A stretch of 64,000 nucleotides of DNA from Candidatus Heimdallarchaeota archaeon (GTDB taxonomy: Archaea > Asgardarchaeota > Heimdallarchaeia > JABLTI01), in the NCBI GenBank assembly GCA_018238155.1, contig JABCTZ010000011.1, forward strand, positions 72,454 through 136,453, given 5' to 3'. Both the position numbers and the translations under genes were made by a program. Below, piece after piece: positions 4,146 to 18,041 of the stretch. The first letter of the stretch is position 1. The number at the start of each line of letters is the position of its first letter. A model generated the notes under the pieces. It saw only the letters and a program-made list of their open reading frames with translations, had not been told where the DNA came from and made no database searches.

Positions 4146-4236
4146 ACCTAAATATTTCTAGACACTCTTTAGAATTAAATCATTTGTCTACTTATTCTAA
4201 AAAAAGAGTCTACAAGAAGGAAAAGAGAAAAGAATG

Positions 4237-4263
4237 TGGCGGACACAGTAGAATATGAATCCA
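4237..4263 (-). repeat. Degenerate copy of the tRNA-Ala 3' end (putative att site / target duplication)
   Basis: tggcggacacagtagaatatgaatcca vs 17934-17960 tggtggaccggatggaatttgaatcca, 20/27 identical, same orientation, intergenic. Confidence 0.6.
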
Positions 4264-4273
4264 AGCTCTTTTG

Positions 4274-5143
4274 TTAAATATTAAATAGATCTTTATTTTC
4301 CTTCCCTTTTTTAGTAACATATTCCCTTTTTTCTTCATTATAATAAATAGTATCAATAGGTAGTATATCTTTAGGTATTGGAGTATTTGCTACTGGATTA
4401 ATATAGAGAGTTGCTTTCTTATCAGTCAATGTAAACGCATTTAAATTTGTAGTAATTAAGATAGCACTCACATCACGATTTCTGTAAAAAAAAGTGTTAT
4501 TTTTTTCATCATATTTTCCAATTTGACCTTCAATAATTAATTGTATCTCAGATTCTTCAATTGACATAACAAATCCATAAATAGCATCCTTAATTGTTTC
4601 ATTATCAATTGGTAATCCATTAGTACAGATATTCAAAGCTAAAATGTATGGTTTATTTTGTAAAGAATATTTTGCTGGGTGTTTTTTATTTATTGCAACT
4701 CTCAATATTTCAATTGGTCTTGTTTCGTGTATCGTTAAGGAACCAACTCTTCCTTCTTTTGTTTCCTGTTGTGATTTTTTTTTACTTACTTTTGCTTCAA
4801 GATAGAATTTAGTTTGTTTCCGTTTGGCATAAAAATCTGGAGTATTTTCCTCATTTTCTATATCCGGATGAATTTTAATATCATAACCACTTAAAAATAA
4901 CATCTCATGTAAATAGAGTTCAAATAGTGCTCCTCTATGAACTCCAATTTCATTTGCGATAAATCTTCGGTAAACCTCACAATTTATATTTTCGGGAAAT
5001 CTATTAAACCATTTTTGTAATCTAAATTTGACCTTAGTAATTTCTGAACTATCTGATTCAAGTAAACAACAATACTCAGAATCATTCTTTTTCTTCTCAT
5101 TACAATTTTCTTTTCGTTCTGAATTAAATAATTTAAGGTTCAC
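4274..5143 (-). CDS. PD-(D/E)xK nuclease-fold protein
   Basis: ALFELY...TPDFYAKRKQTKFYLEAK matches the E...PD...ExK restriction-endonuclease pattern. Confidence 0.65.
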   Translation of the reverse strand: MNLKLFNSERKENCNEKKKNDSEYCCLLESDSSEITKVKFRLQKWFNRFPENINCEVYRRFIANEIGVHRGALFELYLHEMLFLSGYDIKIHPDIENEENTPDFYAKRKQTKFYLEAKVSKKKSQQETKEGRVGSLTIHETRPIEILRVAINKKHPAKYSLQNKPYILALNICTNGLPIDNETIKDAIYGFVMSIEESEIQLIIEGQIGKYDEKNNTFFYRNRDVSAILITTNLNAFTLTDKKATLYINPVANTPIPKDILPIDTIYYNEEKREYVTKKGKENKDLFNI

Positions 5144-5151
5144 TGTTTTTC

Positions 5152-5322
5152 CTAATCCTTTGGATATGATATTTCAACTTCTTTAGTTATAAATATTAAA
5201 CCGTTGTCGTCTTGTAAGAAGATTAAATCATCTCCTTTACAAAGATCTAATTTATCTCTTACTGTTTTTGGTAATGTAATCTGACTTTTAGTTGCTAATT
5301 TAGCACTTCCGAGAAATTTCAT
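5152..5322 (-). CDS. AbrB/MazE/SpoVT-family DNA-binding protein (56 aa)
   Basis: Manually translated MKFLGSAKLATKSQITLPKTVRDKLDLCKGDDLIFLQDDNGLIFITKEVEISYPKD; QITLPxxVRxxLxLxxGD signature; below the ORF-track size cutoff. Confidence 0.85.
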   Translation of the reverse strand: MKFLGSAKLATKSQITLPKTVRDKLDLCKGDDLIFLQDDNGLIFITKEVEISYPKD

Positions 5323-5392
5323 TAATTGCACCTATATAATTATTTGATTCAAGTAAAATAAACCTTTCCTTAAAATCAATTAAAAATAACAA

Positions 5393-5410
5393 TATTGGTA
5401 AAACCCAATA
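5393..5410. promoter_or_regulatory. Palindromic operator candidate in the divergent promoter
   Basis: TATTGG-N6-CCAATA between the divergently transcribed abrB-like gene and 5466. Confidence 0.4.
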
Positions 5411-5465
5411 ATTTGGGAACCCCTTAAATAAAACCTTCTCCTATATATCTATAGGTGATAAGAAA

Positions 5466-7601
5466 ATGGCTCTAGTAATAAAAAACAAGATTTCTTCATA
5501 CACAAAAGAAAACAGAGTACTCATTTATCAAAAAGAGAAAAAAATTAGAGGTTCTCATTATAGTATTTATTCGGATGGAACAATAGAGATTAGAGGAAAG
5601 CTATTGAGTAGTACTAAATTTACTATACCAAAAGATTTGTTCCAATGGTTTGAAATCTCCAATCCATCAAGGATATTTTATGTGGAAATCAAATTGTTTC
5701 CAATAAACACCTATAGTGCTGATATTAAAGCACGGTTTTTATGCGAAAAATATGGAACCTTCATTCAATTTTTGGAACAGCTAGATCTAAAGATTGGAGA
5801 ACAAGTTTTATTTAAACTTGATTTTAGAAATTCGAATATCAAACCCACTCCTAAATTCCATAAAACACTAGCTTTGTTAGAATTACATTCCTTACCCTCT
5901 ATTGAAACTCTAACTTATCTTTTTACTGGCGGTAAAGGGAATCGCGAGTTCTCTCTCTATAAAGATAACAGAAATGTTCTTTTTGTAAAGGCTAATGGGA
6001 CGCTAAGAGATGGTGGTTCAGTCTCTCTGTCACAAGAATTGGGATATTATATTGAGGATTGGTTTGAAAAAGATCATTTAGTTTACGCTTCCAAGGATAA
6101 AGAAGAAGCAAAAATAATAGAATCTAGAATAATTCGAAAAAATACTACAAGACATCTTGAAAAATGCATCTATTTTCCTTATCAAGGGAAAAGTAAACCA
6201 ATTTCATTTGTGATCTCTTCCCATGAATTTCAGTTAACAAGAGATGCAATTCAAGACTTTGATATCAAACAATCTTTAACAGAAAAAGGAATATCAATAA
6301 GTCGTTTTAAATCACATTCTCTTTTAATTGGAAATCATTGTGATTATAAATTTGAGGCTAAAATTAGAAAAATTGCTCATCAATTCTCTTCGAATTATGA
6401 TTGGTTCAATTCTCCTGAGGTTTACTTAGAATTTAATAATCAAAATTATACCATTCAAGGAAATTTCAAAACAGTTGACAATATCATTACAGAAAGAAAC
6501 CTACTAAAAATACTACTAATGGAAATAAAGACATCTGATAAAAATTTAGGAAGTGAATTAGAATATGCTATTGCGAGTATATTACACACTAAAAGCATGT
6601 TTAATCGAGACTACGTTTTTCCTATTCTTTTTATCAACCAAGATACTAAACGATTGAATGGTAGTTTAATCATAACTGAAAATTTCGGTTTCTCTTGCGG
6701 AATTATACTTATTGGTCCCGAAAAGGCATCTTCCCTTCAAGAATCTCCTCAAAAATTATTGAGTATTTTGAATGATTACACTGAAAAAATGAATATTCTT
6801 TCCAAAGAACGGTCAAAACTAATTCATCCCATTTCAGGCAATATAACAACAAATATACTTCTGCAGAAAGAGGCATATCAACTTTTAGCTAATTCAAAAC
6901 TTTCTGAAAACAAGATAATTCCTATTTATTGTTTATTAATGGGAATTACTCTTACTGATTTTTGGTTATTATATAGATATTTTAGAGAATCAATTAATAA
7001 TTGTCAAATGCAAAACCAGAGTGATTTTGGTATTCTTCAAGATGTTGAAAAGAAATCACCAAATTTAGCAATTTTTGATTATTTACATAATCTTTTAGTG
7101 GAAAAGGGCTATTTTGCTCTTTTAGCGCTAAAATCAAAGTTACCTCAAAATGAAGACTTGCACATTCTTTTACAAAATCAAGATCTCATACTTGAAAGAT
7201 TCCCAGCTTGTATAAAAATTCGTGACATCTGGAAACGAAAGAGAGGTAAGGGAACTGCTTATGAACATGAAATAAGAAAGAAATTAATTAAGAATGGATA
7301 TCAAGTAGCTTCCAATGTTATGCTTTCAAATCTTAGTAAACCATTTGAAGTTGACCACTTAGCTTTTAAGAATAACGCAATTACTCTTGTAAGCTGTAAA
7401 GATAGACGAAATATATCTTATGAACCAGATCTTCCACATTTGATAAGAGAAGCAGCAAACGTTCTTGAGTTTCGCAAAAACCTTCTTAATATTGATACTG
7501 CAATTCTTTATGTAAAAGTCAACCCCAACTTCTTTCACAATCAACAATTACTGTTTGGACAGAAACCTTGGGTCAAAAATGTTGAAATAATAATTGAATG
7601 A
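5466..7601 (+). CDS. Large protein with two PD-(D/E)xK nuclease-like domains
   Basis: Internal KFEAKIR...TVDNII...LLMEIKTS and C-terminal GTAYEHEIRKKL...FEVDHLAF...LVSCKD (Mrr/NERD-like). Confidence 0.6.
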   Translation: MALVIKNKISSYTKENRVLIYQKEKKIRGSHYSIYSDGTIEIRGKLLSSTKFTIPKDLFQWFEISNPSRIFYVEIKLFPINTYSADIKARFLCEKYGTFIQFLEQLDLKIGEQVLFKLDFRNSNIKPTPKFHKTLALLELHSLPSIETLTYLFTGGKGNREFSLYKDNRNVLFVKANGTLRDGGSVSLSQELGYYIEDWFEKDHLVYASKDKEEAKIIESRIIRKNTTRHLEKCIYFPYQGKSKPISFVISSHEFQLTRDAIQDFDIKQSLTEKGISISRFKSHSLLIGNHCDYKFEAKIRKIAHQFSSNYDWFNSPEVYLEFNNQNYTIQGNFKTVDNIITERNLLKILLMEIKTSDKNLGSELEYAIASILHTKSMFNRDYVFPILFINQDTKRLNGSLIITENFGFSCGIILIGPEKASSLQESPQKLLSILNDYTEKMNILSKERSKLIHPISGNITTNILLQKEAYQLLANSKLSENKIIPIYCLLMGITLTDFWLLYRYFRESINNCQMQNQSDFGILQDVEKKSPNLAIFDYLHNLLVEKGYFALLALKSKLPQNEDLHILLQNQDLILERFPACIKIRDIWKRKRGKGTAYEHEIRKKLIKNGYQVASNVMLSNLSKPFEVDHLAFKNNAITLVSCKDRRNISYEPDLPHLIREAANVLEFRKNLLNIDTAILYVKVNPNFFHNQQLLFGQKPWVKNVEIIIE

Positions 7602-8050
7602 GAGTTAACTATATGAAACAAGATGTTCCTTTACTTGAAAGTTTATTCGGAACAAGTGATTTACCAACAATTGAAAAATATCTAACAGATGTAGAAGAAG
7701 AAACTAGAGCCAAAGCAATATGGGCATTAACGAAATTTTCTGTGGGGATAACTTTTGAACAAGTTAGAGAAGAATTAATATCTGCAAAAAAAGACCGAAC
7801 AAGGATTTTTCTAGCGGGAGCTTTATACCTTCTAAATTCTTCTTATCAATCACGAGAAATGATTTTCCTTTCCAAATATTATTTACAACATTATTTTGAT
7901 GTAGAAAAAGAAGAGTTAAAAGTTGATTTTACAGGAGATTATGGACGTTCAGCAATAGTCATAGGACTTATTCTCTGGGATGTGGGATATGAAATATTTG
8001 CAACAAATACCTTGGACTTTTACGGTTTAAATTGGCTAATTGAAAAATAA
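7598..8050 (+). CDS. Hypothetical HEAT-repeat-like protein
   Basis: ATGA overlap with the upstream gene; LTDVEEETRAKAIWALTKF resembles a HEAT unit. Confidence 0.55.
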   Translation: MRVNYMKQDVPLLESLFGTSDLPTIEKYLTDVEEETRAKAIWALTKFSVGITFEQVREELISAKKDRTRIFLAGALYLLNSSYQSREMIFLSKYYLQHYFDVEKEELKVDFTGDYGRSAIVIGLILWDVGYEIFATNTLDFYGLNWLIEK

Positions 8051-8102
8051 ACAGTTTTTCTTTTTCAATATCTGTTTTTGAAGTGGAGAATATAACACTA
8101 GA

Positions 8103-9737
8103 TTGGAAGTACATTTTGAAATGAACCAACAAAACTTTCTCACCTGGAAAACTGATCCATTTCTTATAGATCCAATACCCACAAGGAAAAATGATTGGTT
8201 AACTGCGAATAAGCTATTAGAACAAAAAGAGCAGTCAAAAATTTTCCTCAAAAATGATATCCTCAACCTTTATTCCATAATGGTTCGCAAAAACGATTTT
8301 CTTGCCGGAGAACGCCTTATTCAACGATTGCCTTATGTCTCTTTACCACCTGATTTAGCTTCTAGTTTGCGTAAACCGTCACTAAAATTAGCTGAGAGAT
8401 GCCATTACTATTTTCAAGATACTGCTATCAATTATTCTATCAAGAAGTGGCAGCAAAAGATTATTGATTATACGGAGAAGCAGCATCGACTACCATTTCC
8501 TTTATTTAGGATGAGTGATTTCTGGCAAGACTTTCTAATGCAAAAGTACGTTCCCTTCCAATCTGCACGAGGAGAAACCTTCCATTTACCAACTATTCTC
8601 TCTAAAGATTTAGCTTATTTCTTAGGAGTAGTTATTGGCGATGGTCATTTGAACTATTATAATATCGAATTAGTGGACTTTTCCCAAGAGCACACGATTA
8701 TGTTACAAAAATTAGCCATGAAATTATTTGGTATTGAGGGTGCAATTTCTGGTGAGAAAAAAGTGTGGTTGTTACATTTGAATAATAAATGGCTTGTACG
8801 GTTAGCTAATTTCCTAACGGATCAACCAATTACCGGGAAAAAATACCATGCTTTACGCGAACCACTTATTTTTACGTCGGATGAGAATCTTCGATGGGAA
8901 TTCTGGAATGGAGTATTAGATGCAGATGGCAGCTATAAATCACAGATCAATTTCTGTTCTTCATCAAAAAAATTCATAGAAGCATTTGGCTCATTTCTAG
9001 ATTCATACAATTTTGACTATAAAATACGAGAATTAACCTCTGACTTGGGGAATGGTTATTCTTTAAATATTAAAGCGAAACATAAACATTTTTTTAGCCA
9101 ATTCATACAACCAAGACATCCAATAAAGCAAGAAGATTTTTCACAGCACTTAAATCGTCAATCAAACAAAAATCTCAATAATCCTACATTCAAGCGTATG
9201 TATATTAAAGATATTAATCCTCAGACACTAGTTACTATTAATGATACTGCTTTTTTTAATTTCGAACTCATACCTATGCTCAATGTCACAAATTGCACCA
9301 GCTATTTACGAAAGTCTCGTGAAACTAACCAATGGACACAGCAAGATTTAGCTAATTTTCTAGAAATTCAAAAAGGACGATTAGCAGCATATGAATACAC
9401 CGGAAATCTCCCTATTGCTTATCTTGTCAAACTTCTTCCAATTATCCCTAAGAGTACTCCTCATTTAATGCTATTTCTAAAACGGAACAAACATAATTAT
9501 TTTCGTTCACGAAAAACAATTGCTAAGTTAGATCTAGAACCAACTAGTAGTTTGCTTTCTTTAATGAAATCATTAGTGTTCTGTAAGGATTATATTACGA
9601 TTAAAAATAAAAGACCAATTATTACTGAATTGAAAGACCAATTTGAAATAGAAATTGTGAAAAAGAATCTAATTAAAAATTCGGTTTTGCATCGATTTAT
9701 TAAAACATTTTTTTTGCTGAGTACAGAACGAGAATAA
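8103..9737 (+). CDS. Stand-alone double-motif LAGLIDADG endonuclease-like protein with XRE-type HTH
   Basis: LAYFLGVVIGDG and FWNGVLDADG motifs; LRKSRETNQWTQQDLANFLEIQKGRLAAYE HTH; likely start 8121. Confidence 0.85.
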   Translation: MEVHFEMNQQNFLTWKTDPFLIDPIPTRKNDWLTANKLLEQKEQSKIFLKNDILNLYSIMVRKNDFLAGERLIQRLPYVSLPPDLASSLRKPSLKLAERCHYYFQDTAINYSIKKWQQKIIDYTEKQHRLPFPLFRMSDFWQDFLMQKYVPFQSARGETFHLPTILSKDLAYFLGVVIGDGHLNYYNIELVDFSQEHTIMLQKLAMKLFGIEGAISGEKKVWLLHLNNKWLVRLANFLTDQPITGKKYHALREPLIFTSDENLRWEFWNGVLDADGSYKSQINFCSSSKKFIEAFGSFLDSYNFDYKIRELTSDLGNGYSLNIKAKHKHFFSQFIQPRHPIKQEDFSQHLNRQSNKNLNNPTFKRMYIKDINPQTLVTINDTAFFNFELIPMLNVTNCTSYLRKSRETNQWTQQDLANFLEIQKGRLAAYEYTGNLPIAYLVKLLPIIPKSTPHLMLFLKRNKHNYFRSRKTIAKLDLEPTSSLLSLMKSLVFCKDYITIKNKRPIITELKDQFEIEIVKKNLIKNSVLHRFIKTFFLLSTERE

Positions 9738-9797
9738 TGTTTAGAGATGGTTAAGAGTTCCTCTGTCATTTTGAAAAATTGAAGTATTTTGGAAATG

Positions 9798-9919
9798 CTC
9801 TCACAGCTCAGAAGTGAGAGTGAATGTTCTTGACCAAAACTCTATCGCTGAACGCTCCACTCGTGCGACCTAAAAGCCCACGCTTCGGTGGTCTTTTTTA
9901 ACGGTCGTCTTCGACACGA
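9798..9919 (+). ncRNA. Candidate structured RNA or DNA element
   Basis: GC-rich patch with nested stems CTCTCAC/GTGAGAG, TCGTG/CACGA, CGACC/GGTCG, AAAAG/CTTTT and a C(TTCG)G loop. Confidence 0.4.
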
Positions 9920-10092
9920 AAACCAGAGAGAAATCAAAGAGATGATTTTGTCGTGAAAAAATACCCAAGAAAGAACATGAAAATAGGAAAAAAAGCAGAA
10001 AAAGAGATTCTAAAGGGACTTAGAATAACCTTCCGCTATACAAAAAGAAGCCTTCTCCTGCCTTATTTTCAGGCTGATTTTTCGAGACTTTT

Positions 10093-10150
10093 TGTTTTTT
10101 GACGAATTCTTAACATACAGTAAATTCTTGTTTCTGTTTTTTGGCGAATT
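10093..10150 (+). repeat. Pair of 16-bp direct repeats (TGTTTTTTGRCGAATT), 42-bp period, upstream of the Cas1 operon
   Basis: 10093-10108 and 10135-10150, 15/16 identical. Confidence 0.55.
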
Positions 10151-10183
10151 TTGTGCTTTTTAAACAAAATTTGATAGAATTAG

Positions 10184-10822
10184 GTGAGAATAATGACTTT
10201 GGAATCATCTGTGACGCAAGAACAGCATATTCATAAGGATTTATCTAGTGCTAAAGTTAAAGTGACAAACACAGTTCAAACTTTCTGTAAATACTTAATT
10301 GACAGCGCATTGAATCATGGCAGATATTATTATCCTTCATTGAATACTTTCAAATTTGATGAGAAATTGACATTAGTCTCAAGAACAATAGATCGCTTAG
10401 TGAGATTTTTAGTTCAAGTTAATATTCTAACTAAATTAACACGATCGAAAACACAAGCTTATCAAGTCAATGTCAATAATCCATTATTCCACCTTATTTT
10501 GAGAATATATCATCCTGTTCATCCAATTACCATTTGTACAAAACAAGACATCATTTCAATAAAAAGAATTGAAGAACTACAAAGCGGTGTAGAGCACTTG
10601 AAACATGTTTTTAGTCTATTAGAATCAAAAGAGGATCATAGATTAGAACTTCATAGAGATTTGTTGGATGAAATAACTGAATATACTACAGTCTCAGATA
10701 TTTCAACAGAAGATCTAAAAGAGAAATTAAGGTCAATCATCTTAGGCTCTAGCACAAGTGCAGAGATTAACAACTTTTCCATATTAAATGAATTTTTGCT
10801 AGAGTATAACAAGGGGGATTAA
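10184..10822 (+). CDS. Winged-helix DNA-binding protein, first gene of the Cas1-like operon
   Basis: SRTIDRLVRFLVQVNILTKLTRSKTQAYQVN..NP wHTH recognition helix + wing. Confidence 0.65.
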   Translation: MRIMTLESSVTQEQHIHKDLSSAKVKVTNTVQTFCKYLIDSALNHGRYYYPSLNTFKFDEKLTLVSRTIDRLVRFLVQVNILTKLTRSKTQAYQVNVNNPLFHLILRIYHPVHPITICTKQDIISIKRIEELQSGVEHLKHVFSLLESKEDHRLELHRDLLDEITEYTTVSDISTEDLKEKLRSIILGSSTSAEINNFSILNEFLLEYNKGD

Positions 10823-10823
10823 T

Positions 10824-12389
10824 TTGGGATTCATAAACACTCTACCTAAAGCCATCACTACCGTTCTTCGAGATTATTCTTTTCCTTCTGGTGTTGATAA
10901 AGACACCATTCGCAAAGCTGTTAGGTGTGATGAAGACCTGCTTTTTGTTACACCAGATCTAGATGAGCAATTGCAGGTTGCAGTTACTTTAGCTCTTCTA
11001 AATGCTCGATTTGCCGACTCATCATCTATGATTATTGTGCGAACTTCTGATGATGCAAGAAAAATATACAGTATACTCAACCCACAACATCAGGTTAACG
11101 TTTCTAGTGATAGTGTAACAAATGAAACTATTTCTCCACCAATAGATAAATATGCCATTCGTGTTGCTTCCACTTTTTCCAAATTTAAGGGAAATAGCTT
11201 CTCTTCAGCTAATGATTGTATAATAATTACAAGCTATGATTGCTTGCTTCGAAATTTACTCTATCGAAAAAGTTCCGAAGTGGATTTAAAGAACAGAATT
11301 ACTTTACCACATACAAATGCCTATATTTTCGTTGACCCATTTGGCGAAAATAGATCTCTACGAAGAGCTTTAGAGAGCTTCATAACTTTTGATATAGATA
11401 GCATATTGTTTTTCAAGAGAAGAACAAATAACCTTAACATCAGAATGCATTATATCTCACCTGGCATAGTTTCTTTAGATGAACAGAAGAATATGCTAAA
11501 AGTAACATCAACAGTCAAAATTTCTGGAAATCTTGAGCTTGACTTTAGTTTTTCAACGGATAGACATGACATTAGAGAAAATCTCCAATCTGTTCTACCA
11601 TATTTAATGTTATTAAGACTTTATTCTGGGCATCCAACTAAAAAACAATTAACACGTCGAGTGCAAAATTCGGTTAATTATCGTTTACTTCAAAACACTC
11701 ACGAATCAAAAACTAATCCTGAATTTCTTCAGGAAGTTTTAATTGAGACATTGTTTCAATCAACTGATTCTACTGAATGCTTATTTGAATCGTATCAGCA
11801 AAGTCTTGGAAAATTCGCTCTTGCATTAAGAGCTAATGGAAATTCAGGAAAATATATCCTCACACCATTTGGCAAGAAGTTTCTCATAGCCTCAACATAT
11901 TTTAAAGAAATACAAGATGATCCCATTAGTGTTATATTGGATATTAAAAACAGAACACAGAATGATATTCTAGATTGGAACAGCATCTCAGAAATATTCC
12001 ATAATTTTACTAATGGAAAATTAGCTTACGATGATCTGCAAATACTGCTAGGGATATTAAAAACAGAAGCGAATGTTGAAGATGAGACAATTGCTAACAT
12101 TCTATCCAGAACACAAGATAGTTATTCTGTTTTTAAAGTCTGTAGATTACTTGCAAGCTTTCAGGATCATATGACACCTGAAGCAAAAAAGAGCTTCAAT
12201 ATCATTAGCAAGGCATTAGGGCAAAATCTTGACACAGTAAATGAACCGTTAGTAGGAAAGAAAGATAGATTAGCAATCGAGCAAGCGATAAAAGAAGAAC
12301 TAGAATTTGCTACAGATCCAATGACAAAAGCACAAATTGCTCTAAATCTCTCATTATTGAGTTCTGATGTAAAACAAGCAATTGGTTAA
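10824..12389 (+). CDS. Inactivated Hel308/Ski2-like SF2 helicase derivative; probably continuous with 12382-12897 through a +1 frameshift
   Basis: Degenerate motifs in the correct order: LLFVTPDLDEQLQVA (Walker A lost), IIVRTSDDARKIY (Ia), IIITSYD (Ib), IFVDPF (DExH lost), MHYISPGI (SAT lost); YILTPFGK winged helix; ends in the middle of an HTH. Confidence 0.6.
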   Translation: MGFINTLPKAITTVLRDYSFPSGVDKDTIRKAVRCDEDLLFVTPDLDEQLQVAVTLALLNARFADSSSMIIVRTSDDARKIYSILNPQHQVNVSSDSVTNETISPPIDKYAIRVASTFSKFKGNSFSSANDCIIITSYDCLLRNLLYRKSSEVDLKNRITLPHTNAYIFVDPFGENRSLRRALESFITFDIDSILFFKRRTNNLNIRMHYISPGIVSLDEQKNMLKVTSTVKISGNLELDFSFSTDRHDIRENLQSVLPYLMLLRLYSGHPTKKQLTRRVQNSVNYRLLQNTHESKTNPEFLQEVLIETLFQSTDSTECLFESYQQSLGKFALALRANGNSGKYILTPFGKKFLIASTYFKEIQDDPISVILDIKNRTQNDILDWNSISEIFHNFTNGKLAYDDLQILLGILKTEANVEDETIANILSRTQDSYSVFKVCRLLASFQDHMTPEAKKSFNIISKALGQNLDTVNEPLVGKKDRLAIEQAIKEELEFATDPMTKAQIALNLSLLSSDVKQAIG

Positions 12390-12897
12390 TATTAAAAAAA
12401 ATAGTTCGTTACCACTAAAAACTGTTACAGGAAAACCACCAATAGGGAGAAATGTTACGTACTATTCTACAAAAGAAATCCCAGAGCATTTCTATAAAAA
12501 ATGCGGTGACTGTTACTATTTTAGCAAAAATTATTGCATTTTCTGGCGACGAGTGAAAGAGACTGCAGAGCGAAAAGTCCCAAAAGACAAAATGGGCTAT
12601 ATTTCAACCTCAATTCTTAGAAAAAATACTGTTGCCTGTGAAGCATTTCTAGAAGTAGAAACAATGGTGATACATTTCACTATTGATGAATTCAATAAAA
12701 CAGTAACAAAAAGATTTGATGGCTATACTGAAGATGGGGAGGAAAAATTTACTCATTTTTGCCCAATCTGTAGTAAGCAAGGAGAAATGGTACCGCTAAA
12801 GGCATTAGGCAATGCTGCGTTTCCTCAGCAGGGATCAACTCCGACAAGATGTCCAAGATGTGGTTCATCATTTAAGCTTTATCAGGAAAGAAATTGA
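12382..12897 (+). CDS. wHTH wing plus Cys-rich/Zn-ribbon domain (C-terminal part of the upstream gene)
   Basis: GRNVTYY wing; CGDC..C..C cluster and CPIC...CPRC Zn ribbon. Confidence 0.65.
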   Translation: MVNIKKNSSLPLKTVTGKPPIGRNVTYYSTKEIPEHFYKKCGDCYYFSKNYCIFWRRVKETAERKVPKDKMGYISTSILRKNTVACEAFLEVETMVIHFTIDEFNKTVTKRFDGYTEDGEEKFTHFCPICSKQGEMVPLKALGNAAFPQQGSTPTRCPRCGSSFKLYQERN

Positions 12898-12913
12898 AAC
12901 ATTTAGTAGTTAA

Positions 12914-14419
12914 GTGATAAAAATGACTGAAAAAAATACTGGAAAACAACAAATAAAATGTGTGAAAGATAGCAGTCATATACTTTATGACCGGATATAC
13001 AATTTAACAGGTTTGGCAGCTGAAGAGATAGAAGAAGCAAGAACTAATTTAGGAACTCCTATTTATCAAGGCTATGATGTACGATTGATCGATGATGATC
13101 TGTTTATTGGAGATGTAAGGTATAAACTAAAGGATATTAAATTCATCTTTGATTATGCAGGCATTCAAGAAGAGATTAAACAACGATTGCTTGATTATGG
13201 CTGTTATTATGAACGGAAAACTAATTTGAGTGGATGGTTTAATGTCGAAAGAATCGAGCCAAAAAGAGCTGTTTATGTTGATGCTATTAGATTAAGCAAT
13301 GGGTTCAACAATCTCTATCTAAAATCAGTGATCAAGAGTGACCTTAGCATTATCTTCGCACTGCAAGGAATGATACCCGATCAAAGAGTGCTAAAGAAGT
13401 ATGTAGATAAAATTGGTGATGCATATCTCTATGGCTATCACAGTCATGCAAATAAGCTATGCAATTCAGCAGAAGGTTTAGCAGCAGATGTTCTCTGGGA
13501 ATTCACTAACAAGCTGATAGAACCTTACAACTTTAAAATAAGTAATCGAATTTCTGACCGACTCTGCCAATTGAGACGCATGGTTGGAAATTATAGCAGT
13601 ATGGCAAAAACAGCTACAGATGCCTTATTTAACACCACATACCAACTCTTTGAGGAAGAAATATGGAAGATTCTTGAAGAGAAAAAAATTAATTATTTGG
13701 GAGTTGGCGGTTTTTCACATTTCAGTTATTATTCAGACCTTTCTTGGATGGGATTGCCATTAGATCTTGGTGATGCATTAAAGAAAGGAGGGCACTATAC
13801 ATTAGTCGATACTATATTAGCTGAAGAAATAACTCATGAAGATATTAAGCGGCTAACTGCATTCAAAGGAGAGGATAATTATACTGTTACGAAATATGGG
13901 TGTGACATCCTCTATGAGAAGAAGGAAGAACTTTTCGAAAGCTCATGCTTTTATCGTGGGAAACAATATTCATCTTTTAGAGAAGCTTGCAGGGAAGAAA
14001 TTGACAAATTTGATCGCCTATTATCGAATATCGGTGATAGATTAGAAGAGGAGCATCTGTCTATTAAAAGCCCTGATCTAGGGAATAATTTAGCCGTTAA
14101 ACTCTGGCGATTAACGTTAGACTGGGAATATTTGCCAGCAAAATTGAGGGAGAACCTGGGAGAAAGTGTTTTTCAAATATGTCAAGAAGAGATCCAAAAG
14201 CTTGACTTTCAGCCATTAGTATGGATGCGATCGAAACACATAGAACAAAGAGTGAATCAGGAAATTGCTAATTTTGAGGAACTTGCATTCTTATTTACTG
14301 ATAGGGAAGAAAAGCACCACCAAAAACATGGCAGAAAAATCGGTCAATTATCACCAATCACTAAAGAATTCAGTGAAACATTATTGGAGTTACCTGTATC
14401 ATGGATAAACTTGGAGTAA
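12914..14419 (+). CDS. cas1: Highly diverged Cas1-family integrase/endonuclease (solo, Asgard-type)
   Basis: NSAEGLAA (E), ATDALFNTTY (NxxLNxxY equivalent), GVGGFSH (H), GLPLDLGD (D..D), later FYRGKQY..EA; order and spacing match the Cas1 catalytic helical domain; likely start 12923. Confidence 0.75.
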   Translation: MIKMTEKNTGKQQIKCVKDSSHILYDRIYNLTGLAAEEIEEARTNLGTPIYQGYDVRLIDDDLFIGDVRYKLKDIKFIFDYAGIQEEIKQRLLDYGCYYERKTNLSGWFNVERIEPKRAVYVDAIRLSNGFNNLYLKSVIKSDLSIIFALQGMIPDQRVLKKYVDKIGDAYLYGYHSHANKLCNSAEGLAADVLWEFTNKLIEPYNFKISNRISDRLCQLRRMVGNYSSMAKTATDALFNTTYQLFEEEIWKILEEKKINYLGVGGFSHFSYYSDLSWMGLPLDLGDALKKGGHYTLVDTILAEEITHEDIKRLTAFKGEDNYTVTKYGCDILYEKKEELFESSCFYRGKQYSSFREACREEIDKFDRLLSNIGDRLEEEHLSIKSPDLGNNLAVKLWRLTLDWEYLPAKLRENLGESVFQICQEEIQKLDFQPLVWMRSKHIEQRVNQEIANFEELAFLFTDREEKHHQKHGRKIGQLSPITKEFSETLLELPVSWINLE

Positions 14420-14640
14420 TGCTCTTTTTGCTAAAGGAGTACAATGAATTTGGCACTATTCATCCAAAGAGCGCAAAAGAGATCTCTATAGAGGTGGAAT
14501 TGGCTCCCAGTGAAACATATCTTACTCTTGAGACATTACAGCAAGATGGATTGATCTGGCGAGTGGGTAGGAAAAATCTTTACAGGTATGGTATTAAGGA
14601 AGAATCTTTAGCTCATCTAAACAAGCTATTCTCTGCTTAA
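14419..14640 (+). CDS. Small winged-helix protein (TrmB/ArsR-like)
   Basis: SAKEISIEVELAPSETYLTLETLQQDGLIWRVGRKNLYRY; TAATG overlap with the cas1-like stop. Confidence 0.75.
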   Translation: MLFLLKEYNEFGTIHPKSAKEISIEVELAPSETYLTLETLQQDGLIWRVGRKNLYRYGIKEESLAHLNKLFSA

Positions 14641-14654
14641 TTAATGGTAAACAA

Positions 14655-14951
14655 TTGCCGTCTGAGATGTTAATTGATTATCAGAAGCTTGATGAAGTAG
14701 CAGAAAATTATGAGAAGAAGTTTGAGATAGAGAAACAAGAAGGGCTCCTTGTGAAGGAGATCAAGGCATTGCTTAGTCAACTGGTCTTTATTGAATATAA
14801 TAACCGATTCGACATGATTGATTCAGCTGTTGATGATATTGTTGAGGCTTGTTCTCCTGAAAATTTAGATGAAAAATTCGAGCAATTTTTAGAGGATAAG
14901 CTTGAATCAATTTGGGAATATATTATCAGTGCAAGATTGGTGGAGGGATAA
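14655..14951 (+). CDS. Small acidic helical hypothetical protein
   Basis: 98 aa, D/E-rich, operonic spacing. Confidence 0.6.
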   Translation: MPSEMLIDYQKLDEVAENYEKKFEIEKQEGLLVKEIKALLSQLVFIEYNNRFDMIDSAVDDIVEACSPENLDEKFEQFLEDKLESIWEYIISARLVEG

Positions 14952-14954
14952 GGA

Positions 14955-17282
14955 ATGTCTCGAGGAATTCTTGTAAAATCGGTTTTTGATTTGCCACCAT
15001 CAGTGTGTAAAGTATCTGATTGCTATGTAGGCGATGACGAAGTTGGATTAGAGAATATAGGAAAAAGTATCCAAGAGCTATTCTCACACAAGCTCTACTC
15101 TTATCAATTAGAAGCAATTAGAACTGTACTCAAAGGAAATGATTGTTTCCTTGCTGTTGGAACAGGTTCTGGAAAATCTGAAGCATTTTTATTCCCAATT
15201 TTGGAGGATATCGTTGCCGGAAAAATTAATTGTGCGATTATAATTTATCCAACAAAACAACTAGCAGAGGATCAAGAACAACGCATTGCAAAATACTGCA
15301 ATAAGATTCATGAAACGACCGGCAAAAGAATTACTTACAGTAGGTACAATGGTGATTTAACTCGAAAGGAAATTGACTTTGTAGAAAAAAGTAAACCAAA
15401 TATTATTCTTGCAACTATTGACAAATTATTTTATCGTTTCTTTAAGGAAGGCAATGAAGACTTTCTTGATTGGCTGCTCAATGCTGGTGCTTTCGTTGTT
15501 GATGAGATTCATGCCGGCTCAGGAGGATATTTAGATCATGTTCGAGAAATAATTTCAATCTTGAAAAAGATTAATCCAACTTTAAGAGTTATTCTTGCTT
15601 CCGCTACTGTAAAGGAAGTGGAAACTTTTCGCGATAAATTTCTCCCATCAGCTCAAATAATTACAGGAAATGCTACAAGAGGTTCTGTTAGAGTGATGAT
15701 TCTTCAGCCAGAGTCAATAGAAGATCTGCTTTTGGAAAAGATAGACCCCTATTTGTGCAAAGTAAAAGGAGTTTGCGTAATTTTTGTTGATGATATTCGA
15801 AAGGTAGGTGAGTTGGTTGCAAAATGTAATGAACTGTATAAGAAAAAAACAAACATACCTGATGAAATCCTAAGAATACATTCACCATTTGCTTGCATTA
15901 ATAGTCAGTTAAATAGTCAAGAGAAAACATACGTTGTAAAAGGAGTTCATAATGGTACAATTAGGTTTGTGTTTACAACGTCCTTATTGGAACTGGGGAT
16001 GGACATACCAAATATCGTTCATATAATAAATATTTCTTGGCCCATTACGGGAGTTAATGGTCTATTGCAACGATTGGGGAGATTGCGATTTGTAGACCTT
16101 TCCGAGAAAAAGAATTTCTCATTAGTGCTAAATCCAGAAAGAACAATTGATGAATATTACTTGAGCCATCCTGAAAAAATAGAAGAAATCATGATGAAAA
16201 ACAAGACTGAACGAATATTATTTGACTCAAAATCATTGCAAAGAGCACAAGCATTCGTTCTCTTAAGACTTGTTCTTGGTGTAACTAAAATTAAAGATAT
16301 CTTATCCCTATGCACAGATGAGCTAGATAACGGAATTACACGAACCGCAATATCATTACTTTTCGCCAAAGGTTTGTTATCAACTGAAAATCATCACTTG
16401 CCGTTTCTGGAAAGAACCTTAATTATAGCAGAAAGAAATGAAGTTAATGCTTTTATTCGAAAGCATCGTATTCGCTCAACTGAATACCAATGGGAAATAA
16501 TACTGAAGAATTCCAAAAATCAAGAAGAAAAAATCGCTTCAATAGATGAACGACGAATAATCTTTTCAGCTTTGCAAAGGAATTTGTTACATCTAGGAAG
16601 CAAAGGGAATGTTTTTCGAGTAAAAAGTTTGACTAATGAAAAAGTGTTCGTTGAAAAGCTAAATATCATCAAAACAAATATTGAACGAAACAAAGTAAAG
16701 CCACCAATTTTTATTATCGATGGTCAATCTAGAACGCAGCAATTTGAACAGCTAAATATTAGATTTGGAAGGATGATCATTCGCTGGGAAACAAGTGAAA
16801 TAAAGGAATATTCTCGAGATGGACAATTACTTGAAAACCAAATGAAAAAGTCAACTCAAGGAAATGACACATTAGTAGTTACTGATAATGAAAAGCGTCA
16901 AAATCACATTTGGGATGAAAAAACAAGTGGAGTGCTCATAGAATTTGTGAACATCTCAAAAGCTCTTACCAACAAACAAAAGAAACAATCACTAAGGCTA
17001 TTTAGAGAATTACTGGTGAAAAGTATTGAGCTAGAGCTTCACATCTCAGAATCATCATTTCGCACATATTTGAATAATTTTGAAAACAAAATTGCTCTTT
17101 ATGATCGAGGTGGGGAGCTGGGAAATGCTGAAGCAGTTTTCACACAAATAAAACGAGTGCTAAAGCACATGCTCAGCTTATTGCTTGAGAATACAAACGA
17201 CTCTATACTCCCTCTAGTTGGCAATATCTCGGAAAAATCAATAGAAATAACCAAAAAAATGTTAGAGGAGATGGTAAAGTAA
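14955..17282 (+). CDS. YprA/Hrq1/MrfA-like DEAD/DEAH-box helicase with degenerate DUF1998-like C-terminus
   Basis: LYSYQ, GTGSGKS, IYPTKQLAEDQ, DEIH, SAT, TTSLLELGMDI, QRLGR; IALYD..G.G near the C-terminus but no terminal Cys cluster. Confidence 0.85.
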   Translation: MSRGILVKSVFDLPPSVCKVSDCYVGDDEVGLENIGKSIQELFSHKLYSYQLEAIRTVLKGNDCFLAVGTGSGKSEAFLFPILEDIVAGKINCAIIIYPTKQLAEDQEQRIAKYCNKIHETTGKRITYSRYNGDLTRKEIDFVEKSKPNIILATIDKLFYRFFKEGNEDFLDWLLNAGAFVVDEIHAGSGGYLDHVREIISILKKINPTLRVILASATVKEVETFRDKFLPSAQIITGNATRGSVRVMILQPESIEDLLLEKIDPYLCKVKGVCVIFVDDIRKVGELVAKCNELYKKKTNIPDEILRIHSPFACINSQLNSQEKTYVVKGVHNGTIRFVFTTSLLELGMDIPNIVHIINISWPITGVNGLLQRLGRLRFVDLSEKKNFSLVLNPERTIDEYYLSHPEKIEEIMMKNKTERILFDSKSLQRAQAFVLLRLVLGVTKIKDILSLCTDELDNGITRTAISLLFAKGLLSTENHHLPFLERTLIIAERNEVNAFIRKHRIRSTEYQWEIILKNSKNQEEKIASIDERRIIFSALQRNLLHLGSKGNVFRVKSLTNEKVFVEKLNIIKTNIERNKVKPPIFIIDGQSRTQQFEQLNIRFGRMIIRWETSEIKEYSRDGQLLENQMKKSTQGNDTLVVTDNEKRQNHIWDEKTSGVLIEFVNISKALTNKQKKQSLRLFRELLVKSIELELHISESSFRTYLNNFENKIALYDRGGELGNAEAVFTQIKRVLKHMLSLLLENTNDSILPLVGNISEKSIEITKKMLEEMVK

Positions 17283-17283
17283 A

Positions 17284-17955
17284 ATGCCTGATACAGTAAT
17301 AATTGGTGATGTTCATCTTGGAGCAGATGGTTGTTTAAAGGAGGAATTCAAAGAAGCACTGCTGAGCGTTGCAGAAGAAGTGGATCTAATTCTATTCAAT
17401 GGTGACTTTATCGATAATTATGGAGAGAAGGGAAAAAAAGCTCTTGAACAATTCTTAGAATGGATAGACAATAAAAGTTGGAAAGAAAAAATAGTCTTCA
17501 TAACTGGTGGTATGGGTCACGAGGGAAATATTCTATTTGATTGTCCTACAATTCAAATTTTGCCTTGGGCAATTTTAAACACAAAAGAAGGGCGAATTAT
17601 TGTCTGTCATGGACATAATATTGGTCTGGTGAAAAAAGATGATGAGACGTGGGTAGAAGCATCCTGTCGACTTAAGCAGCGCTTAGTGCGCAATGGTTCT
17701 GAGTTCTTGCCAGAGATTTTATCGACAGACAAGATTATTATCAGCCACACTCATGTACCATTTTACAAAATGGATAATGGTATGTTTGCAACAGGGGGAT
17801 GGCGAATAAAAGAGGACTGGTCTGAGGACTATATCAGAAGGAATGTTGGAGTGTTTATCATAATAGATGATGAAGATAGAGATGACCCAATAAAAATGAA
17901 AAGATGGTTAAATGATAAAAAGGGAAGAAAAATTGGTGGACCGGATGGAATTTGA
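17284..17955 (+). CDS. Calcineurin-like metallophosphoesterase
   Basis: GDVHLG, NGDFID, GHE, CHGH, SHTH motifs; last 22 nt are antisense to the tRNA-Ala 3' end. Confidence 0.85.
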   Translation: MPDTVIIGDVHLGADGCLKEEFKEALLSVAEEVDLILFNGDFIDNYGEKGKKALEQFLEWIDNKSWKEKIVFITGGMGHEGNILFDCPTIQILPWAILNTKEGRIIVCHGHNIGLVKKDDETWVEASCRLKQRLVRNGSEFLPEILSTDKIIISHTHVPFYKMDNGMFATGGWRIKEDWSEDYIRRNVGVFIIIDDEDRDDPIKMKRWLNDKKGRKIGGPDGI

Positions 17956-18041
17956 ATCCATGGCCTCCTCAATTTTTTTCTTATAGGACGCATCCTTTAA
18001 GATTGCAAATGAGGCGATCTACCAGTCTGATCTACCGGCCC
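17934..18041 (-). tRNA. tRNA-Ala(UGC) with a 31-nt intron at canonical position 37/38 (intron 17973-18003), encoded CCA
   Basis: GGGCCGG/CCGGTCC acceptor with G3:U70, GATC D-stem, CCTCA/TGAGG anticodon stem, TGC anticodon, TTCAAAT T-loop, ACCA end. Confidence 0.93.

Follow-up and report, generated by a model that had tools for sequence, protein, structure and literature searches.

The 64,000-nucleotide (nt) stretch of Candidatus Heimdallarchaeota archaeon DNA considered here (contig JABCTZ010000011.1; below, the window, whose numbering we use throughout) contains an operon at 10184–17955, on the + strand, in which one gene encodes a protein with the fold of Cas1. We think it probable (at about 0.6) that the cassette serves as conserved core to a larger element, about 13.7 kb long, that resembles the casposons, has no polymerase of its own and uses the Cas1 homologue as its integrase. 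Among the alternatives offered in the preliminary description of this DNA was a mobile element driven by Cas1 and lacking the family B DNA polymerase (PolB), and this is now favoured by the position of the element at tRNA genes, by direct repeats, by the exchange of cassettes between genomes and by a patchy distribution. The 7.8-kb cassette on which that description centred is a genuine operon, but it is part of a larger integrated unit, running from about 4270 to 17933 and ending at the 3′ end of a tRNA-Ala(TGC) gene. The loci with which the window was compared are referred to by L-numbers; L013 belongs to a sister genome, and L063 and L046 to the window's own.

On the evidence of its modelled structure, the 501-amino-acid (aa) protein is a very divergent member of the Cas1/casposase superfamily. 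It gave no match to Cas1 at E values up to 0.1 in Pfam (PF01867), NCBIfam or PADLOC, nor in a profile search of the PDB sequences; its 20 homologues come, every one, from metagenome-assembled genomes of Heimdallarchaeota, and a search of 1.8 billion cluster representatives returned only six proteins. The motifs that had first led to its being called a Cas1 (AEG, ALFNTTY, GFSH and LDLGD) do occur in that order, and the call made from them is borne out by structure searches, which returned only Cas1 and casposase chains, and by the alignment of the catalytic residues. An alignment-based AlphaFold model of moderate quality (pLDDT 68, pTM 0.66) was compared with the PDB by Foldseek: the top 50 matches were all to Cas1 or casposase, the best being the casposase of Methanosarcina mazei (6opm_B, E 5.7e-8). 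A VIA scan of 48,161 chains, which is independent of Foldseek, gave Z values of 15.2–18.3 for seven Cas1 or casposase chains and of 7.8–11.4 for five more, and non-Cas1 chains reached at most 4.8. The VIA alignments to Cas1 and casposases cover 227–270 residues, some of them spanning residues 48–441 and including the N-terminal strands, and the model has both domains of the Cas1 fold (an N-terminal beta domain and a C-terminal helical catalytic domain). Identity to Cas1 and casposases is only 10–16%, and the protein carries a long C-terminal extension. When the family was aligned by hhalign with 25 canonical Asgard Cas1 proteins (E 7e-5, probability 63%), E187 was paired with the catalytic Glu, N240 with the conserved Asn, H269 with the catalytic His and D284/D287 with the LDLxE motif. 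E187, N240, H269 and D284 are invariant across the 20 homologues, and at position 287 Asp or Glu is found, except for an Asn in two proteins. Judged by these residues, the protein looks catalytically competent.

The second line of evidence is the site at which the element lies. In seven loci a tRNA gene follows directly after the phosphoesterase gene that closes the operon, always on the opposite strand, with its 3′ end first, and in the same orientation. The tRNA is tRNA-Ala in the window, L003 and L013, tRNA-Pro in L009 and tRNA-Lys(CTT) in L011; in L002 and L010 it is an intron-containing tRNA-Lys, recognized only by alignment to the tRNA of L011 and called by neither Rfam nor ARAGORN. As tRNA genes occur only about once in 90 kb, coincidence cannot explain why this one end of the cassette should adjoin three kinds of tRNA, and the preference for tRNA 3′ ends in the seven loci (Ala, Pro and Lys) is of the casposon type. 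At the other end of the window's element there is a decayed left repeat: 45 nt of it align at 84% identity (E 5e-7) with the L013 element's right end plus tRNA 3′ end, and it matches the window's own tRNA 3′ end at 21 of 32 positions and is homologous to a clearer left repeat in L003. In L009 the direct repeat of the tRNA 3′ end (33 nt, 91%) lies 14.2 kb upstream, and in L003 there are two such repeats (23 nt, 91%, and 30 nt, 93%), 13.8 and 14.5 kb upstream.

The element is narrowly and unevenly distributed. The Cas1-like family was found in six of 11 genomes of one genus of Heimdallarchaeia, with 0–4 full-length copies per genome, and was not found in 72 genomes from elsewhere in the class. 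A maximum-likelihood tree of the proteins divides them into three clades, each with 100% support, and single genomes may contain a member of each (for example, L001, L002 and L003 are on one 1.55-Mb contig). Where the end of the element can be read, clade B adjoins tRNA-Lys and clade C adjoins tRNA-Ala. Comparison of close relatives points to exchange. L013 has flanks that are 82–93% identical in nucleotide sequence to those of the window, shares with it the MmeI-type gene to the left of the element as well as the genes to the right, and yet the cassette occupying the same tRNA-Ala site there encodes a Cas1-like protein only 43.6% identical to that of the window. The core of the window is about 80% identical to L001, which is located elsewhere in another genome. 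Homology between the window and L001 extends from 9845 to 17905; with its positional orthologues the window is homologous as far as 10100 and again from 17294. The left breakpoint of the exchange therefore falls within 9845–10100, and the core operon has been replaced as a block between a conserved non-coding region and the phosphoesterase gene. The converse is seen in L003 and L013, which have 87% nucleotide identity over 10.7 kb of the element and 68–73% in the flanks, the stretch of high identity terminating at the tRNA-proximal end.

A Pfam search of the open reading frames (ORFs) of the elements in the window, L003 and L009 found no recombinase family, and none of the element genes matched a polymerase family. 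Six-frame searches of the whole 4.08-Mb assembly placed tyrosine recombinases (PF00589) only on contigs C8 and C19, and three PolB genes (PF00136) on contigs other than that of the window, on which neither family was found. A canonical cas1–cas2 pair is present on another contig of the same genome, and its cas1 is the only one found by PF01867. Within the 64 kb, the array scan and the six-frame searches detected no tandem array, Cas2 or PolB, as the preliminary description had maintained, and no Cas2, Cas4 or effector family was found in the cassette using Pfam, PADLOC and NCBIfam (no search aimed at effectors was made in the window). Arrays were also lacking beside all the other loci examined, with the exception of L015 and L016.

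In these two metagenome contigs of clade B (L015:8212-9901 and L016:487-740) the cassette has a CRISPR array on either side, and the 37-nt repeats of the two arrays are related. The right-hand array, of 23 repeats, starts 28 nt past the phosphoesterase gene, its first repeat being degenerate and of hybrid appearance; the left-hand one has three repeats and is followed by a fragment of a type I-B cas8b gene (Cas_TM1802). This context could represent a chance insertion site, or it could reflect a link between the Cas1 homologue and CRISPR repeats.

The core operon comprises eight co-oriented ORFs that overlap or are separated by no more than 16 nt, and comparison with 18 related loci indicates that they make up six genes, once two 1-nt frameshifts are repaired (Table 1). 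The earlier count of seven ORFs and a single frameshift was thus short by one of each, but the number of genes, their common orientation and their tight packing all stand. The gene for the ~690-aa protein is split by a +1 frameshift, with an extra base near 12376–12380, and that for the ~185-aa protein by a −1 frameshift, with a base missing at 14629; the former is unbroken in ten other loci (680–697 aa), and the latter is unbroken elsewhere (183–188 aa). Contigs 95–99% identical to the window, from three of the four metagenome runs (subsurface, marine-sediment and hydrothermal-vent) available for each site, have one base fewer at 12380 or an added A after 14629 and thus lack the frameshifts. 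Since these near-identical contigs are without them, both genes are evidently intact in the population, and the frameshifts of the window copy are either assembly errors or very recent mutations. The same six genes stand together in other genomes as well.

Table 1. Features of the putative element and of its insertion site (window coordinates; a dot indicates a feature without assigned strand)
Feature	Coordinates	Strand	Remarks
Decayed left direct repeat (attL-like): purine run and degenerate tRNA-Ala 3′ end	4219..4266	.	
Variable cargo gene, 289 aa, beside left repeat	4274..5143	-	
AbrB/MazE-like small regulator (predicted), divergent from 711-aa gene	5152..5322	-	Read from sequence
711-aa accessory protein with weak NERD-like (PD-(D/E)xK) C-terminus	5466..7601	+	
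150-aa partner of 711-aa gene	7598..8050	+	
LAGLIDADG-like and helix-turn-helix (HTH) protein, 544 aa	8103..9737	+	
Conserved GC-rich non-coding block, 116 nt	9834..9949	+	Between 544-aa gene and core operon
Second non-coding block: 10-bp inverted repeat with 7-nt centre	10005..10075	+	Upstream of core operon
212-aa protein, first gene of core operon, possibly HTH	10184..10822	+	
~690-aa protein with C-terminal Cys4 zinc ribbon, split 521 + 171	10824..12897	+	ORFs 10824-12389 and 12382-12897
501-aa Cas1-fold protein, predicted integrase	12914..14419	+	
~185-aa winged-helix protein, split 79 + 98	14401..14951	+	ORFs 14401-14640 and 14655-14951; overlaps Cas1-like gene; cas2 position
775-aa superfamily 2 helicase with YprA-like core	14955..17282	+	
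223-aa calcineurin-like metallophosphoesterase	17284..17955	+	Last codons extend into tRNA gene
tRNA-Ala(TGC) gene with 31-nt intron; 3′ end is insertion site/right repeat	17934..18041	-	Rfam 52.7 bits; ARAGORN, introns allowed

How might the products of the other core genes be connected with the Cas1-like protein? A distant relative of 1215 aa (24% identity) is a fusion of the ~690-aa protein and a Cas1-like domain, and because they are fused there we take the two proteins to act together in the window's element also. Downstream of the fusion gene come a helicase (with a faint MZB/DUF1998 match, in L068) and then a metallophosphoesterase, so the helicase–phosphoesterase pair would belong to the same machine. 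The ~690-aa protein itself had no match in profile searches of Pfam and the PDB. It had been put forward as a dead Hel308-like partner, and this was not confirmed: its AlphaFold model is poor (pLDDT 51, pTM 0.25), Foldseek gave nothing below E 0.001 (the best match, at 6.8e-3, being to unrelated proteins with PCI and winged-helix domains), and the lead comes from the Atlas embedding, in which its nearest neighbours are archaeal DEAD/DEAH helicases of about 700 aa, at 0.78 where the trust level is 0.9. The first gene product, of 212 aa, is kept in all loci at 29–63% identity, and its matches to HTH families are all below threshold.

The match of the ~185-aa protein to the TrmB-type winged HTH is likewise sub-threshold. 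A complex prediction for the Cas1-like protein with the winged-helix protein scored 0.57 (best control, 0.00) and so lends the pairing weak support: in the benchmark, 58 of 80 solved complexes and two of 110 mismatched pairs reached the mark, and scores of 0.60 or less were obtained for only seven of the 80 solved complexes, yet for both of the mismatches that passed. Agreement of contacts between the runs was at least 0%, and the pLDDT of the partner at least 64. The 775-aa helicase has Pfam matches to DEAD (1.5e-28) and Helicase_C (2.7e-12), matches to TIGR03817 and TIGR04121 that fall under their cut-offs, and generic helicase matches only (BrxH, Cas3 and DruE-type) in PADLOC. Its original designation as a YprA helicase holds for the core, the nearest solved relative being YprA of Bacillus subtilis (6znp, E 8.5e-16), but does not extend to the DUF1998/MZB domain (PF09369), which in YprA defence helicases belongs to a C-terminal OB-CON-DUF1998 array and which Pfam failed to detect in the window copy. 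The last protein of the operon is a phosphoesterase, as described (Pfam Metallophos, 1.6e-8), with a PHROG match to DNA repair exonuclease (3e-6) and a faint similarity to Mre11/SbcD (E about 0.5).

Casposons, the proposed ancestors of CRISPR adaptation, generate a target duplication of 14–15 bp, by preference at the 3′ end of a tRNA or aEF-2 gene, and their casposases need terminal inverted repeats; in family 2, the casposon of Aciduliprofundum boonei is at tRNA-Pro and that of Methanosarcina mazei at tRNA-Leu. The window's element resembles casposons, and family 2 especially, in that a Cas1-fold protein, with casposase 6opm as its best Foldseek match, is encoded by its sole integrase-like gene, and in that it is inserted at a tRNA 3′ end, has beside it what may be a duplicate of part of the target, and has tandem remnants at one site. 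Like them it lacks Cas2 and an array of its own, and carries HTH proteins and nucleases. Casposases, too, target tRNA 3′ ends and form tandem insertions (PMC9939771). The element differs from casposons in lacking PolB, which is present in all those described (PMC9939771), and in having no recognizable terminal inverted repeats and longer flanking repeats (23–33 nt). Its integrase of 500 aa, with the C-terminal extension, fails the Pfam model of Cas1, and the companions of the integrase are different: the ~690-aa zinc-ribbon protein, the YprA-like helicase, the metallophosphoesterase and the LAGLIDADG-like protein.

Very divergent Cas1 homologues have been noted in Asgard archaea before: according to the summary given in PMC8730458, Makarova et al. 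(2020) found extremely diverged ones, for some of which a place in unknown mobile elements or in non-programmable defence systems was predicted. The present protein shares their extreme divergence, and its gene set could be one of the groups described by those authors. The same source describes the ARAMP systems, which are derived from CRISPR and have homologues of Cas5 and Cas7 together with nucleases (PMC8730458); no families of the Cas5/Cas7 type were detected in the cassette, which in this respect is unlike ARAMP as so described. Literature searches turned up no description of the gene set, the loci of Makarova et al. (2020) lying outside the comparison.

A possible mechanism may be outlined, in which the roles of all the partner proteins are putative. 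The Cas1-like protein would join the 3′-OH ends of the element to the tRNA target in the manner of a casposase, with the result that some 30 nt of the tRNA 3′ end would be duplicated, one copy lying to each side of the element. The likely partner of the Cas1-like protein would be the ~690-aa zinc-ribbon protein, and the winged-helix protein might also take part. Unwinding and trimming of the element's ends might fall to the YprA-like helicase and the metallophosphoesterase; alternatively, these two might aid its copying by host enzymes, and so replace the PolB of casposons.

Several considerations weigh against regarding the cassette as the core of such an element. Integration activity is something that we infer for the Cas1-like protein, as is its role as integrase. 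The flanking repeats are about twice as long as the 14–15 bp duplication made by casposons; at 23–33 nt they have the typical length of the core of a tyrosine-recombinase attachment (att) site, from which they are indistinguishable, and the two tyrosine recombinases encoded on other contigs could act in trans. No direct repeats were found within about 7 kb upstream in L001, L002, L013, L014 and L020, and several loci have neither a tRNA nor a repeat in the sequence available. Local alignment of the element ends in the window, L003 and L009 revealed no conserved terminal inverted repeats: the inverted matches present are short, non-homologous and differently placed, that in the window being one 17-nt pair (4295–4311/17917–17933). 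Flank searches in 26 genomes gave fragmented matches only and no clean empty tRNA-Pro site, and no excised form was found. The copies within a genome are old paralogues (43–55% identical between clades), not near-identical ones of recent origin. Finally, the swapping of cores could have come about by ordinary homologous recombination in the conserved blocks that flank them, and the loci have restriction–modification, toxin–antitoxin and TnpB genes in their neighbourhoods, as in defence islands.

On a different explanation, which we judge rather unlikely, the core operon would be cargo (for non-programmable defence, or for DNA repair or recombination) on a tRNA-linked island moved by some other, perhaps trans-acting, recombinase or only by homologous recombination. 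The systems DISARM, Dpd, Druantia and ARMADA are built around a YprA-family helicase paired with a nuclease and are often carried on tRNA-integrated elements with direct repeats (PMC12458937), and the present operon is like these systems, and like MrfAB, in having a helicase core nearest to YprA/MrfA, a nuclease-type gene directly downstream and a place on a tRNA-linked element. The BrxH, Cas3 and DruE-type helicases matched in PADLOC, the MmeI-type restriction–modification, toxin–antitoxin and TnpB genes nearby and the two tyrosine recombinases elsewhere in the genome all suit the same explanation, as does the coexistence in one genome of three diverged types that are swapped as cassettes between conserved flanks, as is often seen with defence genes; the age of the paralogues, too, keeps it alive. 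However, no PADLOC system model fits beyond the generic helicase matches, and the operon departs from the YprA defence systems in that neither DUF1998/MZB nor the methyltransferase, phospholipase D (PLD) nuclease or BrxHII partners are detected; its nuclease partner is instead a calcineurin-like phosphoesterase, a term that is absent from the survey of YprA systems (PMC12458937). Moreover, the Cas1 homologue is alone among integrase-like genes in always accompanying the tRNA-adjacent end, and it has kept its catalytic residues; the right end of the exchanged segment is the tRNA-proximal end; and the preference for tRNA 3′ ends is one that casposases share.

Might the operon instead serve CRISPR? 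It could be imagined as a derived adaptation-type module that acts in trans on arrays or array-like repeats and does not drive its own movement, though we find this very improbable. There are resemblances to the Cas1–Cas2 module in the Cas1 fold, in the catalytic Glu, His and Asp, in a small gene that overlaps the 3′ end of the cas1-like gene and has the position of cas2 (the weakly supported complex, at 0.57, involves its product), and in an apparently duplicated target of about 30 nt, the length of a CRISPR repeat; a canonical cas1–cas2 pair is available elsewhere in the genome, and in the L015/L016 lineage the cassette does stand between two arrays, with the cas8b fragment beyond the left one. 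But that context is found in one lineage only, where it may be a chance insertion site; neither the 64-kb window nor any other locus examined has an array, and every other informative locus adjoins a tRNA gene. The window offers no match to a Cas2 family, no array and no leader, Cas4 and effector families are undetected in the cassette, and, in contrast to the Cas1–Cas2 module, the target is a tRNA gene and the insert an element of 13.7 kb, not a spacer of 30–40 bp. A bolder proposal, and an improbable one in our estimation, is that the Cas1-like integrase cuts the tRNA 3′ end with a stagger of about 30 nt (as at a CRISPR repeat), regenerates its target with each insertion and builds up arrays of tRNA fragments and captured DNA, like those beside the tRNA-Pro genes of this genus; in the L015/L016 lineage the element stands at the end of a CRISPR array. 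The element would then represent a living intermediate between casposons and CRISPR adaptation, with a Cas1 that duplicates a target the size of a repeat and needs neither Cas2 nor polymerase.

If the cassette is indeed the core of a casposon-like element, the known range of Cas1-driven mobility would be widened, in that a Cas1-type integrase and a tRNA target would be combined without a polymerase, and with a helicase–nuclease pair, a zinc-ribbon partner (adjacent or fused) and flanking duplications of about 30 nt, the size of a CRISPR repeat. The system would allow tests of how Cas1 measures the distance between two sites of strand transfer, for which the three diverged types of integrase, with their apparently different tRNA targets, would form a natural comparison set. 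The protein also shows that, in those archaea most closely related to eukaryotes, whole branches of the Cas1 family escape sequence profiles.

Several genomes of the genus have, beside their tRNA-Pro genes, partial copies of the 30-nt tRNA-Pro 3′ end. Up to six such copies occur in the same orientation (L064:2903-7659, L066:110-6759 and L065:291-4547), spaced by mostly unrelated sequences of 0.3–3 kb, one of which matches the left cargo of the L009 element; these arrays look like remnants of serial insertions. In the window's own genome, 12.8 kb separate a tRNA-Pro gene from a second copy of its 3′ end (L063:6733-19543, contig C39). This stretch contains caspase-like, ABC transporter, subtilase and LVIVD genes, along with fragments of the genes for the 544-aa protein and the phosphoesterase, and no integrase was found in it. 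The tRNA-Lys(CTT) genes of L002:15040-15240 and L010:15020-15200 seem to have their introns at non-canonical places, in the T arm.

The left-hand part of the element is made up of accessory genes. The 544-aa gene is present in every locus with enough upstream sequence (44–66% identity); its product matches LAGLIDADG_3 in Pfam (E 2.5e-5, above the cut-off) and, weakly, a PHROG endonuclease. The 711-aa gene occurs in seven of the loci examined, in either orientation, and is missing from others; its match to NERD in Pfam (E 7e-4) is under the cut-off, and it is invariably accompanied by the 150-aa gene, whose product has been assigned to no family. The putative AbrB/MazE-like gene is 84% identical to a gene of L003 annotated as PF04014 (MazE_antitoxin), and occurs also in L002, L012, L013 and L020. 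The same order, of the 544-aa gene and often the 711-aa/150-aa pair with the divergent AbrB/MazE-like gene, upstream of the six core genes, is found elsewhere too. The gene next to the left repeat, which is the usual place of an integrase, varies between loci: in the window it is the 289-aa cargo gene, which matches phrog_8571 (function unknown) and no Pfam family, and has a homologue only in L003, and in L009 its position is occupied by an unrelated TPR protein.

Between these genes and the core operon are two conserved non-coding blocks. The block at 9834–9949 is about 90% identical between loci in which the proteins are 32–80% identical, and its covariance model matches only genomes that have the Cas1-like gene. 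In this model 93% of the cells are paired, and there are two compensatory pairs, in the central hairpin, the other two helices being invariant; the hairpin is followed by a run of T. RNAalifold, applied to a MAFFT alignment, gave a weak consensus, and no Rfam family matched at E values up to 1. From these features of sequence the block is possibly a structured RNA, or possibly a terminator of the 544-aa gene with conserved flanks. The block at 10005–10075, which is likely to be an operator or promoter region, is kept in clades A, B and C. In most loci its inverted repeat has TTCTCCT at the centre; clade B and L009 have the complementary AGGAGAA there, which gives the impression of a flipped hairpin. 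The stretch that contains the left breakpoint of the exchange (9845–10100) takes in this block.

Finally, we draw attention to three genes outside the element. Directly to its left in the window (1449–4145) is a gene for an MmeI-type (type IIL) restriction–modification enzyme of 898 aa, 91% identical in L013. The genome to which the window belongs also encodes (L046:8852-10735, contig C6) a second Cas1-like protein, which differs from the first, is 627 aa long and has an N-terminal winged helix and zinc ribbon; hhalign relates it to the 501-aa family with a probability of 94.7%. Its gene has as neighbours a LAGLIDADG-like gene akin to that for the 544-aa protein, a PD-(D/E)xK nuclease gene, TnpB and Cdc6/Orc1, and the locus possibly represents another family of Cas1-linked elements. 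In L014 (clade C), an archaeal signal recognition particle (SRP) RNA gene (3570–3877 of that locus) lies about 1.4 kb upstream of the 544-aa gene.

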